A DNA stretch of 64,000 nucleotides. It comes from a virus (lineage: Duplodnaviria > Caudoviricetes). How positions within the stretch are numbered: the first letter of the stretch is position 1; the number at the start of each line of letters is the position of its first letter. Location: the IMG/VR virus record IMGVR_UViG_3300035698_029580; one strand, given 5' to 3'. The translations under genes were made by a program, and so were the position numbers. The notes beneath the pieces were generated by a model. That model worked only from the letters and a program-made list of their open reading frames with translations. It ran no database searches and had not been told where the DNA came from. Positions 985 to 57,377 of this stretch are shown here, one piece after another.

Positions 985-1705
985 TATTAATTTGCCTTTT
1001 ATGTTAGCAGAGCAAATTATGGGAATTATTAGTAAACGTAGTAACCCTGAGAATATGTATTGTGATTTTCATTACAATGCTAATAGTAATTCTATGACAG
1101 ATAATAAGCAAAATACTTTTTTTAAATGTGATCTGACACCAGAGGATGGATTTTTAAATGAATTTAAAACAGAATTATTTTCTGACGAATTTGCAAATCT
1201 TTCTGAAGAAGACCCAAGTATTAACGACAAGATAAAAAAAGTATTTGTTGCTGTTTCCGATATAATCAGCACTAGATATAGTGATGTTTGTCGAGATATT
1301 ATAAGAAAAAATTGTATGCCCACCTCTAAACCAGAAAATATGCCACTTTCTAATATAGAAGTTAAAGAAATGGAAATTGTAGATACATCTGCTATATACT
1401 CTCCTCCTGGACCATATATACTTAGTAATCCACCTCATTCTGAAATTTACTTGTCTCATCGGCACAATACGAGTATAAAAGAAAGAATGAAAGATCTTAT
1501 GGCTTATATTGCAGATAAAAATGAGAAAACTGGAAAATCATTTTTAGAAATATTTAACGAAGATAAAAAGGGAACCGACCGGCCTGAGTGTTTCTGGTGG
1601 GTATCTCCGGAAGCTTCATTCCGTAAAATTGATTGGGATTTAATCGTTTATTTCTTTGTTGATTATAGATTAGACAAACCTTTGGAGAAACCTGTTGATG
1701 CCTAA
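956..1705 (+). CDS. hypothetical protein
   Basis: 249-aa ORF with AGGAG SD. Confidence 0.7.
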   Translation: MIDIKKLLDDINLPFMLAEQIMGIISKRSNPENMYCDFHYNANSNSMTDNKQNTFFKCDLTPEDGFLNEFKTELFSDEFANLSEEDPSINDKIKKVFVAVSDIISTRYSDVCRDIIRKNCMPTSKPENMPLSNIEVKEMEIVDTSAIYSPPGPYILSNPPHSEIYLSHRHNTSIKERMKDLMAYIADKNEKTGKSFLEIFNEDKKGTDRPECFWWVSPEASFRKIDWDLIVYFFVDYRLDKPLEKPVDA

Positions 1706-1766
1706 TGATGAAAAAAATAATTTATGGGAAATAAAAAATAAATCTGATATTAAAAAAAATGGTTAT

Positions 1767-2079
1767 AAATAAGGTCTAAGAAAACCCCAAAGCTTGCCTT
1801 AGGGGACGAATTGCTAACTAAAAAATCTCAAGTTCTTTGAAAAGTGAGTATTTCATTAAGGCTTTTTAAATTTTTTAGTCGATACTTATATATGATATGA
1901 TAACCAAGTATCAAAAAAGAAAATATAGAAACTACCGTAGGGCATACGGGAAGTAACGCCTGTGGAGATGATAAGGTTACAGAACCACTTTGTGGTTCAG
2001 TGGTCGTCTGTGAAACAGGAAAAAGAATTCTTAATTTAGTTTAAGAAGAAGCCCCAAGGCTTGCCTTGGGGAGTGTCAC
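1767..2079 (+). mobile_element. non-autonomous IS200/IS605-family element (MITE/PATE), 313 bp
   Basis: Follows TTAT; left hairpin AAAA-CCCCAAAGCTTGCCTTAGGGG, right hairpin GAAG-CCCCAAGGCTTGCCTTGGGG then AGTGTCAC; blocks 1929-1978 and 2047-2079 are identical to the tnpB element at 56990-57039 and 57113-57145; no ORF. Confidence 0.9.
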
Positions 2080-2099
2080 TTGCTTAAAATTGCTCAGGA
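1921..2099 (+). ncRNA. TnpB omega-RNA (reRNA) scaffold plus flank-derived guide TTGCTTAAAATTGCTCAGGA
   Basis: Homologous to the 3-prime end of the tnpB element; ends approximate. Confidence 0.7.
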
Positions 2100-2224
2100 A
2101 ATAAGCTCTGAAAAGCTTACTGATGAAGAAAAAGTACAATTTAAAGAAATGATAGATATATTAAAAAAATCATAAGTTCTTTATTTGCAGTAAGATATAT
2201 AATATTCTTCTTCTTATATTATTA

Positions 2225-2303: not shown

Positions 2304-4379
2304 ATGAAAAATGTAGATTTGTTTGCTGAAGATGTTCCGGAAGAGGCTATAGAGTTAGAAGTAATAATTGCCAAATTAGACGAAATGTATGAAAGTGGGG
2401 ACGATTGTATACATCCTATCACTGGGGAATCCGTAACTGACAATGAATATGATTTTTTCAAGAAAAAATTATTTTTAATTTATCCTGAGTCTCATGTATT
2501 TCATAAAGTTGTTTCTGGGATAAAGAACAGGGGAAGAAATAAAATAAAACATGATCCTCCTATGACATCTATTGACAAATGCAATGGAACAGAAGATGAA
2601 AAAGGAAAAATTTTAAAGAAATGGCTTGGGGAACGTATACCATTTAATAAAGTTTTAGAAAAAAATATTTTTTGTATGTCTTTGAAGTATGATGGTATAG
2701 CATTATCTCTCACATATAAAGATGGTAAATTAAAAACAGCAGCTTTACGATCTGATGGTATAATGGGAGAAGATGTCACTGCATCAGTCAAACATATAGA
2801 TGGTATTTCATTGAAATTACCTATTTCTATCAGTTGTACTATAAGGGGAGAAGTTATTTGTCTCAAATCTGAATTTTTAAAAGTTAACAAAAAATTAGAG
2901 CAAGAGGGAATGCCAATTAAGGCAAATCCTAGAAATCATGCTGTCGGTGTTCTTCATAGAGAGAATTCTGATGAAGTAAAAGATATGGGGTTGAAGTTTG
3001 TAGCATATAATATTATTGATTTTAAAGATGCTCCCTATGAAACTGAGATTGAGAGGGCTAATTGGGCTGTTGAAAATTTAAATCTTAATTATATTCGTAT
3101 TGTACCATTTGATTATTTTCTTTTGGAGAAATGGGAAGAAACCCATCGGCAGTTGGATTTTCTTGTAGATGGAATTGTTATAGCAGCAAACAATATAAAA
3201 CATCAAGAAGGGTTGGGTACTACTGGAAGTTCGGCTACAGGCAATCCCAAGGGGAAAATAGCATATAAATTTGCTGATGAAGTAAAAAAGGTTGTTGTCA
3301 AAGATATTATATGGGATACTGGTAGGACCGGTCATATAACACCTGTTTTACATTTTGATGGTGTTAATCTTGAGGGAACAGTTGTTTCTAAATGTACTGC
3401 TCATAATTCTGGTGTAGTTATAAATGAGAAGATTGGGATTGGTTCAGTAATTGAAGTTATTAAGTCTGGTAAAATTATTCCAAAGTTGAAACGAGTTGTT
3501 AGAAGTAAGGGCTTTTCTGGTTTGCCGGATAAATGTCCTGTTTGCGATAGTACTCTTCATAGGGTGAGTGGTAAAGATGAAGCACAAAGTCTCTTTTGTA
3601 GGAATTCAAATTGTCCTTCTCAAGTAATAAAAAATGTTATTCATTATTTAAACATAATAGGGATCAAAGGGGTTGGTGAATACGTTCTTAATAAAATAAG
3701 TGAACATGCTAAAAGTTTGAATATTAATCTTTTATATTCTTTAAGTTATCAACAATTAATTGATGAATTTGGAATAAGTCCAAGAACAGCATTGTTAACG
3801 GTAGCAAGAATTAATATGATTTCTTCTGCGGAAAAAATGGAAGATGATGAATTAAAATCTGAGATTAAAAAAATATTTAATAAAAAGAAAAAAATTCCTA
3901 TTGCCACATTTTTTGCTGCTTTAGGGATAAATGAGGCTGGAAAAGAGGCTGGTAAATTATTATCTAATCATTTTGGTAATTGGGCACAGATTAGGAATGC
4001 CTCTGCAATAAGTTTAGAAAATATTGCAGGAATTGGACCTATCTCAGCAAAAAATATTTGTGAATTTTTTCAAAATTGGGGAGAAGGTATTGATGATTTA
4101 TTGGAAAATTACGTTGAATTGGAATTACCATCAAAAGGAATTTTAACTGGAAAAAGTTTTGTCTTTACAGGTGGCTTTCCTGGTGGTAAAAAGAAATGGC
4201 AATTAGAAGTAGAAAAAGCCGGAGGACAGATTAAAGGCAGTGTTTCCAAACAAGTGGATTTTGTTGTGGCTGGAACGGACTCTGGTAATAAATCCAAAAA
4301 AGCTAAAGAACTTAAGATAGAAATAATTGATATTAATGAATTACAGGATTTATTAAAAGTTAGGAGTTTCAATGTTTGA
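2304..4379 (+). CDS. ligA: NAD+-dependent DNA ligase
   Basis: KYDG adenylation motif, NPRN, DGIV, AYKF, GRTG, C4 Zn finger, HhH repeats, C-terminal BRCT (FVFTG...SVSKQVDFVVAG). Confidence 0.95.
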   Translation: MKNVDLFAEDVPEEAIELEVIIAKLDEMYESGDDCIHPITGESVTDNEYDFFKKKLFLIYPESHVFHKVVSGIKNRGRNKIKHDPPMTSIDKCNGTEDEKGKILKKWLGERIPFNKVLEKNIFCMSLKYDGIALSLTYKDGKLKTAALRSDGIMGEDVTASVKHIDGISLKLPISISCTIRGEVICLKSEFLKVNKKLEQEGMPIKANPRNHAVGVLHRENSDEVKDMGLKFVAYNIIDFKDAPYETEIERANWAVENLNLNYIRIVPFDYFLLEKWEETHRQLDFLVDGIVIAANNIKHQEGLGTTGSSATGNPKGKIAYKFADEVKKVVVKDIIWDTGRTGHITPVLHFDGVNLEGTVVSKCTAHNSGVVINEKIGIGSVIEVIKSGKIIPKLKRVVRSKGFSGLPDKCPVCDSTLHRVSGKDEAQSLFCRNSNCPSQVIKNVIHYLNIIGIKGVGEYVLNKISEHAKSLNINLLYSLSYQQLIDEFGISPRTALLTVARINMISSAEKMEDDELKSEIKKIFNKKKKIPIATFFAALGINEAGKEAGKLLSNHFGNWAQIRNASAISLENIAGIGPISAKNICEFFQNWGEGIDDLLENYVELELPSKGILTGKSFVFTGGFPGGKKKWQLEVEKAGGQIKGSVSKQVDFVVAGTDSGNKSKKAKELKIEIIDINELQDLLKVRSFNV

Positions 4380-5130
4380 AGATATGGTTATAAAATACTT
4401 TGATTGTGAATGTTTAGACAGAGATCATGCTATTCGTTTCATGTACTTTCCAGAAATAGACTCTGCTAAATCAGAATTATATCTAGGTCTTAAATTTGGC
4501 CGAAATTATTATACTAATTGGGTGCCAAATTTAATTGAGTTTTGGAGAATGGCTAAGGACATGTCTGTTGTGGAAGAAGATTATGTTAGTGAGATAAAAT
4601 GGTTTTGGAGTTATTTTTGGAGATTTTTATTTATAAAGCGTATTGCTTTGGGTTTTTATCATTTAATTAATAAAGATCACGAATTGGATGGATATGGTGA
4701 TACCATTATTTCTCATGGTGGTCCCCATAAATTGGCTGAATTTTTAGAAAAATATTGTAATGATTGTAAATATGAAGAAGAACATACAGAAAAATTACGT
4801 TTTTATGAAGTAGAAAATAATGAATTTATTTTACGTATTGGGTATGATAGAAAAGATATGTTTGATTTTAATTGGCATCCTGAGTTAGTTACCAGTAGAT
4901 TTTTTATTAAGAAAAAGTGGTATATTAGATTAAAACAGTTTTTCAAGTGTGTTTTTGGTACATATAGTCATACGGAAGACACATATGAAATAAGTCCTTC
5001 TCAAGCACATAAAATAGTTAATGTAATAAAAACACATCAAACAGAATTAATTGAAAGAAATAAAAAGTGGGAAAAAGAAAAAGAAACATTTAAGGGGGGA
5101 ATTTATGCAGCGAAAAATAAAAAAGTATGA
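4372..5130 (+). CDS. hypothetical protein
   Basis: 252-aa ORF with SD, overlaps ligase stop. Confidence 0.7.
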   Translation: MFEDMVIKYFDCECLDRDHAIRFMYFPEIDSAKSELYLGLKFGRNYYTNWVPNLIEFWRMAKDMSVVEEDYVSEIKWFWSYFWRFLFIKRIALGFYHLINKDHELDGYGDTIISHGGPHKLAEFLEKYCNDCKYEEEHTEKLRFYEVENNEFILRIGYDRKDMFDFNWHPELVTSRFFIKKKWYIRLKQFFKCVFGTYSHTEDTYEISPSQAHKIVNVIKTHQTELIERNKKWEKEKETFKGGIYAAKNKKV

Positions 5131-13252: not shown

Positions 13253-14059
13253 ATGAGTCAGAGAGTAGAACTACTGGTAATCGACCCTCAGACGGATTTT
13301 TGTGATCCAGACAAGGGGTCTTTGTATGTCAAGGGAGCAGAAGAAGACATGCAGAGATTAGCAAAATTGGTTGATTTAAGAGGTAATAAATTTAAGGAAA
13401 TACATGTTACCTTGGATTGTCATAATTCTGTAGATGTAGCTCATCCTTGTTTTTGGGTTGATAGTAAGGGTTCTAATCCCGCTCCATTTACAATTATTTC
13501 AGCTAATGATGTAAAAGATGGAAAATGGATACCTGTCTTTCCCCAGTATAGGGAGAGAATGGTACAGTATGTAGAAGGACTGGAAAATAGTGGTAGGTAT
13601 CCTCTATGTGTTTGGCCGCCGCACTGTCTGATTGGTAGTGTTGGTAATGCAGTATATCCTCCTTTGTATGAATCTCTTTTGAAGTGGGAGAGTCTTAGAC
13701 CGTGGAATGTAAGATATGTCAGTAAGGGTTCTAATCCTTTTACTGAACATTATTCTGCTGTTAAAGCTGAGGTACCTGATACTGCTGATGCTTCTACTCA
13801 ACTTAATGTTGATTTTATTAATACTTTGATGAAAGCTGATGTAGTAGCAATTGCTGGAGAAGCCGGGAGTCATTGTTTGGCGAATACGGTTCGTGATATC
13901 GCCTCGGGATTCGGAGATGATAGTGCTATTAGCAAATTAGTTCTTCTTGAAGATGCCACATCTCCTGTTTCTGGTTTTGAGCAATTTCAGATTGATTTTA
14001 TTAAAGAAATGAAGGCCAAAGGTATGAAAACTTCAACTACTGTAGATTTTTTGGCATAA
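13253..14059 (+). CDS. pncA: nicotinamidase (isochorismatase family)
   Basis: IDPQTDFC, DCH, WPPHC, KG..EHYS, GEAGSHC. Confidence 0.85.
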   Translation: MSQRVELLVIDPQTDFCDPDKGSLYVKGAEEDMQRLAKLVDLRGNKFKEIHVTLDCHNSVDVAHPCFWVDSKGSNPAPFTIISANDVKDGKWIPVFPQYRERMVQYVEGLENSGRYPLCVWPPHCLIGSVGNAVYPPLYESLLKWESLRPWNVRYVSKGSNPFTEHYSAVKAEVPDTADASTQLNVDFINTLMKADVVAIAGEAGSHCLANTVRDIASGFGDDSAISKLVLLEDATSPVSGFEQFQIDFIKEMKAKGMKTSTTVDFLA

Positions 14060-14078
14060 GCTGAAGAAAGGATAAAAA

Positions 14079-14831
14079 ATGAACTCTAAAAATTTGCAAA
14101 GTAATAATTTGGAATCTCATTCTCTTTCTACTGGTAGTTTTGGCTATTCAGCAGCAGGATTAGAAGATTTGGGAGCCACAGAATATACCTTGGTTACTAT
14201 TGTGGTAGACACAAGTGGTTCTGTTGCATTTTTCAAAAAAGATATGGAAAAGGCTATTATGGAAGTAGTTAGTTCATGTAAATACTCCAAACGTTCAGAT
14301 AACTTAATGATTCGTTTTGTTACGTTTCATAATGATATGACGGAGGAACATGGATTTAAATTACTTTCAGATTGTGATGCTTCTAATTATGATGATTGTC
14401 TTATGGTAGGAGGATCAACAGCATTGTTTGATGCTTCTCAAAATAGCATTGAAGCCACAAGAGATTATGGTAAAAAACTTGTTGATAATGATTTTGATGT
14501 GAATGGTATTATTTTCATCATCACAGATGGAGATGATAATTCTTCTACTATGACTGCTGATGGAGTAAAGAAAAGTTTAGCAGAAGTTTTAAGAACTGAA
14601 GCTCTTGAATCTTTGATGACAATTTTAATTGGTGTCGGAGTTGGAGGATACCCTGGAATTCAAAAGTATTTGAATGATTTTCAAAAAGATGCTGGTTTAA
14701 CTCAATATGTCAACATCAAAGATGCTGATGAAAAATCATTAGCTAAATTAGCTCAATTTATTTCTAAATCAATTTCGTCTCAATCTAATGCTTTGGGTAG
14801 TGGCGGAGAGAGTCAACCTTTGACATTTTAA
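14079..14831 (+). CDS. vWA domain protein (TerY/YegL-like)
   Basis: MIDAS DTSGS, GGSTALFDA, ITDGDDN. Confidence 0.85.
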   Translation: MNSKNLQSNNLESHSLSTGSFGYSAAGLEDLGATEYTLVTIVVDTSGSVAFFKKDMEKAIMEVVSSCKYSKRSDNLMIRFVTFHNDMTEEHGFKLLSDCDASNYDDCLMVGGSTALFDASQNSIEATRDYGKKLVDNDFDVNGIIFIITDGDDNSSTMTADGVKKSLAEVLRTEALESLMTILIGVGVGGYPGIQKYLNDFQKDAGLTQYVNIKDADEKSLAKLAQFISKSISSQSNALGSGGESQPLTF

Positions 14832-55104: not shown

Positions 55105-55593
55105 ATGAAAACAGAAGTTATGGCATTAAATACTACAGGCAAAACACTTATAGTTGTTACTGACAATAATTACACAACTACTATTAATCCTGATAGTTTT
55201 GTGGATATTAATGTGGAAGGTTTGAAGGGTTCAAGTAAAATTAAATATATGCTCGAAAAAGGATGGCTTAAAATAGTAGAAAGGGAAGAAGAACCAGAAA
55301 AAGGTGAACTTGGATTGGAAGAACTACATGAAGCATATGGTAAAGAATCTTTTGAAGAGCAAATAGAAAATCTATATTTTCCTGAAGAAGATGAAAATGA
55401 AGATTTTACAAACGAAAACGATTGGGAAAAAGTACGAGACATTATAAAAAATGAAGTAGAAAATGGTTTGTCTTCATTAAAATTGCAAATAAATAAACAA
55501 GAAGACCAAATTGATCTTATGCAAAATCAGGTAGAGGCTTTAACAAGTTATATAAGCTGTCTGAGAAAATTCCATCGCTCGTTTTGGAGATGA
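55105..55593 (+). CDS. hypothetical protein whose 3-prime end is interrupted by the tnpB element
   Basis: Last 13 codons derive from the element left end after TTAT 55548-55551. Confidence 0.65.
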   Translation: MKTEVMALNTTGKTLIVVTDNNYTTTINPDSFVDINVEGLKGSSKIKYMLEKGWLKIVEREEEPEKGELGLEELHEAYGKESFEEQIENLYFPEEDENEDFTNENDWEKVRDIIKNEVENGLSSLKLQINKQEDQIDLMQNQVEALTSYISCLRKFHRSFWR

Positions 55594-57145
55594 ATCAGAC
55601 GTTGAATCAACCGAAGGTTGATAATTTTATAGATATTTCTTTAAAAAGTTAATATATTTTTTAATAAAAAAAGAAGGATAATTAGTTTTATTCTTTAATA
55701 TATAATTATAAGATACTTAAACTGTACACCAAAATATTTAAAAATACATTAAAGAGTAAATATCTTCTTCTTTTAGTACAGTTTAAGAATTAGGTTTTAC
55801 TCTTTTTTTATGAGAATTTAAGTGTTAATTCATAAAAGTTTTAAATTTAGACTTTATCCTACTAAAAAACAAGAGTCTCAACTCTTACAACAAGCAGGTA
55901 ACACCAGATTTCTCTGGAATAAACTGTTAGAGTCCAATCTTGAAACTTACAAAAATACTAAAAAATTCCAGTTTTCTTATGAAATGATTATGAGCATTCC
56001 TAAGATGAAAGAAAAGTTTGAGTTTCTCAAACTTTCTTTTAGTCAATCTCTTCAACAAGTAGGAAGACATTTAGATAAATCTATTAAAAACTCGTTTGCC
56101 CCCAAAATCATTAAAGAAAGAAATAAAAAGATAGTTGAAGATAAAACTCCTAAAGAAAAAATGAAGGCTTATGAGTATGGAAGACCTAAGTTTAAAAAGA
56201 AAAAACAATTTGACTCTTTTACAATTCCTCAGACGTTCAGTATTCATAGTAAGTTTGTAAAACTACCTAAAATAGGTAAAGTCAAATGGATTAAACATAG
56301 AAAAATACAAGGAAATCCTAAATTCATAACTGTTTCAAGAGATGGAAATCAATGGTATTGCTCTGTTACTTCTGAAGTTAAAATACTTGATAAACAATAT
56401 TCTCAGAGTACTGAGAATATTGTAGGAATAGATGTAGGTTTAAAAGAGTTTGCTACTCTTTCAAACAATATTGTAATTCATAATCCTAGACACTTAAATA
56501 AGAAGTTAAAGAAACTTGTAAGAGAACAAAGATGGTTAAGTAGGAAGGTTAAAGACAGTAATAATAGAAAGAAACAAATAGAAAAAGTTCAAACAATTTA
56601 TAGAAAAGTAAGAAATGATAGAAAAGATTTTCTTCATAAAACTAGTTCTGATATGATAGTCAAGTATTCAGGAGTAGTTTTAGAAGATTTGAGTGTTTCA
56701 GGTATGATGAAGAATAAAAAATTAGCTAGACATATTTCTGATGTAGGTTGGTACGAGTTTGGTAGAATGTTAGAGTATAAATCTTTATGGAACTCAAAAC
56801 ATTTCATAAAGGTTGACAAATGGTATGCAAGTAGTAAAATCTGTAATAAATGTGGTAATAAGAAAATAGATTTAACTTTAAAGGATAGAGTTTATATTTG
56901 TGAGAATTGTGGAAATGTGGTAGACAGAGATTTTAATGCAAGTGTAAATATTAGAGATGAGGGTATTAAAATGTTAAAAGAAAATATAAAAACTACCGTA
57001 GGGCATACGGGAAGTAACGCCTGTGGAGATGATAAGGTTCATGTTCTCCCCAAAGGGGAGATTCAGGTGGTCGTCAAGGAAACAGGAAAAGTTCTAACCA
57101 GTTCAATAGGTCAGAAGCCCCAAGGCTTGCCTTGGGGAGTGTCAC
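55552..57145 (+). mobile_element. IS200/IS605-family tnpB-only (IS1341-like) element
   Basis: TTAT then left end with AAAA at +15 to +18 as in the MITE; right end GAAG-hairpin-AGTGTCAC; no tnpA. Confidence 0.85.
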
Positions 57146-57162
57146 CAGTCTATTCAAATTAA
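55822..57162 (+). CDS. tnpB: RNA-guided endonuclease TnpB
   Basis: FKFRLYPT HTH, RuvC GIDVG / LEDL / DRDFNA, Zn ribbon CNKC..CENC; catalytic D-E-D intact. Confidence 0.95.
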   Translation: MLIHKSFKFRLYPTKKQESQLLQQAGNTRFLWNKLLESNLETYKNTKKFQFSYEMIMSIPKMKEKFEFLKLSFSQSLQQVGRHLDKSIKNSFAPKIIKERNKKIVEDKTPKEKMKAYEYGRPKFKKKKQFDSFTIPQTFSIHSKFVKLPKIGKVKWIKHRKIQGNPKFITVSRDGNQWYCSVTSEVKILDKQYSQSTENIVGIDVGLKEFATLSNNIVIHNPRHLNKKLKKLVREQRWLSRKVKDSNNRKKQIEKVQTIYRKVRNDRKDFLHKTSSDMIVKYSGVVLEDLSVSGMMKNKKLARHISDVGWYEFGRMLEYKSLWNSKHFIKVDKWYASSKICNKCGNKKIDLTLKDRVYICENCGNVVDRDFNASVNIRDEGIKMLKENIKTTVGHTGSNACGDDKVHVLPKGEIQVVVKETGKVLTSSIGQKPQGLPWGVSPVYSN

Positions 57163-57165
57163 ATG
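56982..57165 (+). ncRNA. TnpB omega-RNA overlapping tnpB 3-prime end; guide CAGTCTATTCAAATTAAATG
   Basis: Position at IS right end; conserved with MITE copy; ends approximate. Confidence 0.75.
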
Positions 57166-57345
57166 TCAAAATAGGAAACCTTCCCTTTTTGTGGGCGAAA
57201 AGAAAAATTTGAAAAGTTTGATAAGATTAACTATTTATTATCTCAGGTCATGAACGAATTAAAGGAATTATGTTAAAAATTAAACAATGTAAGTAATAAG
57301 AGGATTTTTATTAAAAAATTCAAAATAAATAATGTGTTTATTGGT

Positions 57346-57377
57346 GTCGCACCACGTAGGGGTGCGTGGATTGAAAT
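57346..57377 (+). CRISPR. solitary type I-C-like CRISPR repeat (no array)
   Basis: GTCGCACCACGTAGGGGTGCGTGGATTGAAAT, 32 nt, CGCACC/GGTGCG stem, ATTGAAAT tail; single copy, no cas genes in window. Confidence 0.75.

Follow-up and report, generated by a model that had tools for sequence, protein, structure and literature searches.

We analyzed a 64,000-nucleotide stretch of giant-phage DNA (the window) and found that its segment 1767–2079 is almost certainly a protein-less, palindrome-associated deletion derivative of a tnpB-only IS200/IS605-family element, from a family shared by related giant phages. The 3′ 145–158 nt of this mini-element, abutting its right end, form an omega-RNA scaffold that is structurally complete. 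A family-derived profile detected exactly two scaffold copies in the 64-kb window, the second of which belongs to a resident tnpB element.

Results

Boundaries and ends of the mini-element

The window is AT-rich (30% G+C) and carries genes for a ribonucleotide reductase, NAD synthesis enzymes, a sigma factor, and an NAD-dependent ligase. The mini-element is flanked by a 249-codon ORF (956–1705) on one side and by the ligase gene (2304–4379) on the other. Its G+C content is 36%, and stops occur throughout all six frames. The initial annotation had described a 313-bp ORF-less element here; we confirmed the boundaries 1767 and 2079 and found zero ORFs in six frames. The features of the locus, with their basis in brackets, are:

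1698..2175, + strand: small host gene split by the mini-element, without the 49 central codons of its relatives (relatives L038 and L040)
1763..1766, + strand: TTAT insertion motif and predicted TAM, left flank of the mini-element (family insertions)
1767..2079, + strand: ORF-less IS200/IS605-type mini-element (PATE/MITE), 313 bp (flank homology to L038/L040, no ORF, ends homologous to those of tnpB elements)
1781..1805, + strand: left guide AAAA and imperfect left hairpin; outer stem and third hairpin absent (family comparison, fold)
1892..1913, + strand: hairpin-tip island retained from inside tnpB, loop GAUARCCAA (homologous to 56648–56671)
1935..2079, + strand: omega-RNA scaffold of the mini-element, ending in TCAC (alignment, covariation)
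1935–1949, + strand: scaffold stem P1
1982–1998, + strand: scaffold variable hairpin
2028–2047, + strand: scaffold hairpin P4
2048–2051, + strand: GAAG
2052–2071, + strand: right-end hairpin
2080..2095, + strand: predicted guide segment, the right flank (by position, analogy with ISDra2)

Both ends are homologous to the ends of gene-bearing elements and each bears a subterminal hairpin, imperfect on the left (1785–1805) and perfect on the right (2052–2071); the right terminus reads TCAC (2076–2079). As had been noticed from the start, TTAT precedes both the mini-element (1763–1766) and the tnpB element (55548–55551), and IS608-like guide tetranucleotides lie 5′ of the hairpin feet, AAAA (1781–1784) on the left and GAAG (2048–2051) on the right. 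The combination of AAAA with TTAT, compared with AAAG and TTAC in IS608, is the expected co-change. The parallel between GAAG/TCAC and IS608 depends on what we take to be the right guide of IS608.

The left end is weaker than in the rest of the family. It folds with −8.9 kcal/mol versus −16 to −36 kcal/mol for other family left ends, and it lacks the enclosing stem and the third hairpin that are present in all of them. Both left ends in the window are weakened (1767–1840 and 55559–55600) and both right ends are intact.

The omega-RNA scaffold is structurally complete

We aligned 22 distinct right ends of the family and defined invariant columns among the nine tnpB-linked copies. The consensus structure comprises 31 pairs, arranged as a 5′ stem, two long-range helices around a variable hairpin, a fourth hairpin, and the right-end hairpin. 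Across the family, 99% of the cells are paired, and compensatory change is seen at 17 of the 31 pairs. These values were not attained in any of 500 shuffles, and pairing in slid controls amounted to 29–46%. In the mini-element, all 31 consensus pairs are formed and 78 of the 80 invariant columns are unchanged, confirming the earlier proposal that an ORF-less element retains a complete omega-RNA. The two departures from invariant columns correspond to one compensatory exchange, from C-G to U-A.

Comparison with the right end of the resident element (56976–57145) recovered the two shared blocks that had been described: a 64-nt block with a single mismatch, which contains the identical run of 50 nt, and an identical block of 33 nt. 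In a gapped alignment of 175 nt, the two sequences are 80% identical. The variable hairpins (1982–1998 and 57045–57061) differ in sequence and both pair, again in line with the first description. Rfam returned no family at gathering score for the scaffold and holds no model of such a scaffold type. A hit to a Helicobacter sRNA (E 1.6) was dropped as noise, as it was not reproduced in relatives.

A family of gene-bearing and gene-less elements

We searched for the family with a 25-nt degenerate pattern taken from the scaffold core. The pattern matched 34 further loci (32 JGI metagenome loci and two contigs of an Anaerolineaceae MAG), and it had no match in IMG/VR. A full tnpB is present in at least eight of these loci, and at least 10 distinct elements consist of a left end and a right end without a gene (207–443 bp) and keep the scaffold. 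TTAT precedes 20 of the 21 family insertions and is itself preceded by G in 19 of the 21; TTAT also adjoins the target in L038 and L040, so the role first assigned to it as the insertion motif holds. Every complete right end closes with TCAC. The spacing fits the layout of IS608: TTAT and the left hairpin are 18 nt apart, and the end of TCAC lies 8 nt beyond the right hairpin.

In the gene-less copies, the right-side deletion break points cluster at TnpB codons 389–391, at the 5′ foot of P1; apparently, deletions into the scaffold did not survive. Hairpin type does not follow the TnpB tree. Several contigs have genes in common with the window (L032, L013), and a 254-kb scaffold bears two tnpB copies. 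The arrangement seen in the window recurs in L031, where a full tnpB (3754–5016) is accompanied 9 kb away by a gene-less element (14057–14314) with a different variable hairpin.

In two pairs of loci, L032/L033 and L035/L036, the members share the element and right flanks that are >99% identical, and their left flanks are unrelated from the left-end boundary on. Such a pattern arises either from recombination at the element or from chimeric assembly. We set it aside as evidence of homing because chimeras assembled at repeats account for it just as well.

In the phage databases, INPHARED contained no relatives of the flanks and only distant matches to tnpB; IMG/VR gave zero exact matches to four patterns (ends, scaffold, empty site) and no relatives of two flanking proteins.

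The resident tnpB element

The tnpB element of the window comprises the following features:

55548..55551, + strand: TTAT, left flank of the tnpB element (element-free L041 reads TTAC here)
55552..57145, + strand: tnpB-only IS605-family element, 1594 bp, with a degenerate inner left hairpin (alignment to relatives, element-free L041)
55822..57162, + strand: tnpB ORF, GTG start, 446 codons, running past the right end into the flank (Pfam, ISDra2 alignment)
56996..57145, + strand: omega-RNA scaffold of the resident element (alignment, profile search)
57146..57161, + strand: predicted guide of the resident element (by position)

Alignment to the closest relative, the L001 element of a related metagenomic phage, together with the element-free L041, placed the left boundary at 55552, ∼270 bp upstream from the tnpB start. 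Homology to L001 runs from ∼55586 to exactly 57145; the two TnpB proteins are 85% identical, and their cores 88%. The resident TnpB has three Pfam domains (HTH, OrfB_IS605 [RuvC], and zinc-ribbon) and matches ISDra2 TnpB over residues 1–383 (E 3e-50), with the catalytic D, E, and D and the zinc-finger cysteines kept. Judged by these residues, the protein looks catalytically intact. No Y1 transposase (tnpA) was found among the 67 ORFs of at least 90 codons in the 64-kb window.

Compared with L041, the resident element is a simple insertion, L041 reading TTAC instead of TTAT; in L041 the next gene starts 54 bp after the uninterrupted gene. The 3′ remnant of the split gene (57146–57288) is out of frame with the 5′ part, the shift being due to two single-base differences from L041. 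The insertion of the tnpB element is not recent, given that this remnant is out of frame.

Two further observations concern this region. A CRISPR-repeat-like sequence (57345–57377) lies ∼200 bp downstream from the tnpB element, before the next gene, and is absent from L041. The tnpB GTG start is abutted by the stop of a three-codon mini-ORF that begins with ATG, both in the window (55808–55824) and in L001 (1202–1218).

The two halves of the mini-element have decayed unequally

We considered the resident tnpB copy as the source of the mini-element scaffold and rejected it: the identity to that copy is ∼80%, as against 94.7% to L001. The last 131 nt of the mini-element are 94.7% identical to the L001/L021 element, the variable hairpin included; its first stem is of a type common to the resident copy and several others. 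On the alignments, the scaffold is thus assigned to a lineage other than the resident tnpB copy.

The left 155 nt show no match longer than 20 nt to any other left end. Between the two halves, a 22-nt island (1892–1913) is retained; in tnpB, the corresponding sequence is the tip of a hairpin of about 20 bp that lies within the RuvC-coding part. The same island is kept alone in other gene-less copies (L024, L023, L028, L013, L016, and L005), with co-varying stems, and in the gene-less subset it lies 50–76 nt upstream from the scaffold core. The unequal decay of the two halves, together with the family-wide retention of the scaffold, argues that the RNA module is under selection.

Insertion of the mini-element was coupled to a loss of host sequence

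The initial annotation had stated that precise excision restores the interrupted host ORF in frame. Joining 1766 to 2080 indeed yields an in-frame ORF of 54 codons. The ancestral gene, however, is longer. In the two relatives of the flanking gene, L038 and L040 (78% protein identity and ∼82% DNA identity), homology to the window stops exactly at 1766 and restarts exactly at 2080; their intact gene has 103 codons, and 147 bp, the middle 49 codons, lie between the junction points. Excision would therefore not restore the ancestral gene. The locus differs in this respect from the resident tnpB element, which is a simple insertion.

L038 and L040 carry TTAT directly before the homologue of the right flank, a sequence context that fits insertion at, or cleavage after, this motif. 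The right boundary of the proposed empty site is confirmed by both relatives, which also carry the 147 bp that are absent from the window. An empty allele with TTAT joined directly to position 2080 and preceded by the left flank of the window, as had been predicted, was not found among the relatives. As read from the junctions, the locus represents an insertion plus the loss of an adjacent 147 bp, both end points of the loss lying right after a TTAT-like motif. Two routes could lead to this arrangement. The element may have entered at the upstream GTTAT, its right end then being joined to the next TTAT in a transposase-type reaction, or it may have entered at the downstream site, with a later loss between the two short repeats.

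The intergenic region next to the ligase gene holds another insertion in L038. There, an ORF-less segment of ∼305 bp (2722–3025) separates the ribosome-binding site from the ligase start codon, and its first 85 nt give a below-threshold match to Rfam HEARO, the IscB guide RNA (40 bits, E 6.5e-7). The segment could represent an OMEGA mini-element of a second kind within this intergenic region.

Predicted targets and transcription

The predicted guide is the right flank itself, so that targeting of the element's own empty allele follows by construction and adds no evidence. Compared with the natural empty targets, the guide has mismatches at positions 6, 7, and 10 in L038 and at positions 6 and 7 in L040. 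For ISDra2 TnpB, double mismatches within positions 1–12 abolish cleavage (PMC10097598). Within the window, neither predicted guide (2080–2095 and 57146–57161) had secondary targets beyond chance.

A promoter-like AAGGC-N18-GATACT had been proposed to precede the scaffold. The letters are present (1858–1886) but do not give a sigma-70-like match, and GATACT is one arm of the conserved hairpin; a sigma-70 scan recognized no promoter inside the mini-element. The mini-element is co-oriented with the surrounding operon. With this orientation and no recognizable promoter of its own, read-through followed by TnpB trimming would be the simplest route to a guide RNA.

Discussion

A further member of a described kind of element

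Meers et al. (2023; PMC10055086) noted that palindrome-associated elements (PATEs) frequently carry an omega-RNA, which depends on a TnpB supplied in trans. According to the summary by Altae-Tran et al. (PMC10691335), omega-RNAs that stand alone are active in trans and broaden the range of targets. Homing of transposons against co-infecting phages is listed in a 2026 review. The concept of a single nuclease with trans guides, and of homing against co-infecting phages, is thus already in the literature, and because the work on PATEs and trans omega-RNAs is published, the mini-element is a further example of a described kind. It adds three local twists: a scaffold of foreign lineage, a coupled deletion, and a retained hairpin island.

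The PATEs of Geobacillus stearothermophilus (PMC10055086) resemble the mini-element in that they have no protein gene, family-type ends with subterminal hairpins, and an omega-RNA that needs the TnpB of another element. The mini-element differs from them in residing in a giant phage rather than in a bacterial chromosome, in its degraded left end, in its tnpB hairpin island, and in the coupling of its insertion to a 147-bp host loss. Like the stand-alone omega-RNAs of OMEGA systems (PMC10691335), it is an effector-less guide locus accompanying an effector locus in the same genome, with a predicted second target; unlike them, its putative trans-acting scaffold is of a sister lineage instead of a near-identical copy.

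The ISDra2 TnpB–omega-RNA complex (PDB 8EXA, 8H1J; PMC10097598) has a similar layout, with several stems up to the right end followed by a guide of ∼16 nt, and the one peripheral variable stem of our family resembles stem 3b of ISDra2, which is dispensable (PMC10097598). The insertion motif is TTAT (mostly GTTAT) here and not TTGAT, and the scaffold of our family is without an Rfam match. In IS608 of Helicobacter pylori, the cleavage sites are read by 4-nt guides beside hairpins (PMC3201880). The ends of the present family are alike: one cleavage tetranucleotide precedes the left hairpin by 18–19 nt, another follows the right hairpin at a distance of a few nt, and a 4-nt guide lies 5′ of each hairpin foot. 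They depart from IS608 in that the end of the right cleavage site is 8 nt away from the hairpin instead of 10 nt, in that the family left end has an extra enclosing stem, and in that no tnpA turned up in the window.

Free-standing homing endonucleases of T-even phages, such as SegF, carry out intronless homing. The outcome proposed below for the mini-element would be the same, in that the element-free allele of a co-infecting relative is cut and repair copies the donor. The proposed recognition would be RNA-guided, however, and guide and nuclease are encoded 54 kb apart.

How the cassette might work

The mini-element would be transcribed by read-through of the co-oriented operon. TnpB would then trim the transcript and load the mini-element scaffold in trans, and the complex would cut, in an element-free genome, a TTAT-flanked match to the 16 nt after 2079. 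Recombinational repair would copy the mini-element in, so that it homes or is maintained. If this selfish benefit is selected for, the preservation of the guide-RNA half beside a decayed left end would be explained.

The central step, loading by the TnpB encoded 54 kb away as the initial annotation had proposed, is a plausible prediction. Such cross-use may occur because the scaffold type is native to L001, whose TnpB shares 88% core identity with the resident protein, and because hairpin type does not follow the TnpB tree and the equivalent stem of ISDra2 is dispensable. Against use in trans, the scaffold is only 80% identical, with gaps, to the resident one, no promoter is recognized inside the mini-element, and the natural empty alleles have two to three mismatches at positions 6–10. 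We hold only tentatively, at slightly less than an even chance, that the resident TnpB actually uses the mini-element scaffold. The complete account, including trans use and homing or maintenance, seems to us evenly poised between right and wrong. As the window has no Y1 transposase and its left ends are weak, excision, and so restorative homing, may not occur at all.

Alternative explanations

The mini-element might be an inert relic, a decaying and inactive insertion whose guide half looks intact through youth or because a conserved block was copied. The degraded left end, the lack of a Y1 transposase in the window and of a recognized promoter, and the 49 codons missing from the host gene all fit such a history, as does the frameshift in the gene remnant beside the tnpB element, which points to old, fixed insertions. 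Decay alone, however, sits poorly with a left half diverged beyond recognition next to a right half that is 94.7% identical to a relative, with sole departures from invariant columns that compensate each other, and with independent gene-less copies that all end their deletions at the foot of P1; we consider a relic unlikely, though it deserves to be taken seriously. If the scaffold is in use, its partner need not be the TnpB encoded 54 kb away: an L001-type TnpB could serve it, encoded by a second tnpB elsewhere in the genome or by a relative that co-infects. The scaffold matches L001 at 90–95%, compared with 80% for the resident copy, and a single sample series yielded both L001-type elements and relatives of this phage. 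Since no second tnpB copy is seen within the 64-kb window and hairpin type does not track the TnpB tree, we think a different partner improbable.

It could also be the phage, and not the element, that benefits, with TnpB and dispersed guide cassettes forming a domesticated weapon that excludes competing phages. One tnpB and one gene-less guide occur together again in L031, guide modules are kept as left ends decay, and a review has put forward co-infecting phages as targets. The guides are nonetheless mere insertion flanks, as in any IS605 element; neither matches elsewhere in the window beyond chance, known relatives are matched too poorly to be cut, and the window holds just two copies. We judge such domestication very improbable. 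A broader scenario is that the TnpB elements of this group of giant phages have given up transposition and that one nuclease serves several dispersed, gene-less guide cassettes exchanged among phages in homing or exclusion, each cassette converting or destroying empty alleles in co-infecting relatives, so that the 147-bp replacement would be the footprint of a conversion. The decay of left ends and the lack of a transposase in the window would fit this reading, which we offer as a speculation with a small chance of being right.

Implications

Returning to trans use of the cassette: if the resident TnpB does use it, the window would hold a natural case of an RNA-guided nuclease with a separately encoded guide in a lytic giant phage. 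The pay-off would then be homing between co-infecting genomes, not repair from a sister chromosome. The family itself provides a compact test system, with ∼10 gene-less and 8 gene-bearing copies, a GTTAT motif, a strongly covarying scaffold, and filled and empty alleles.
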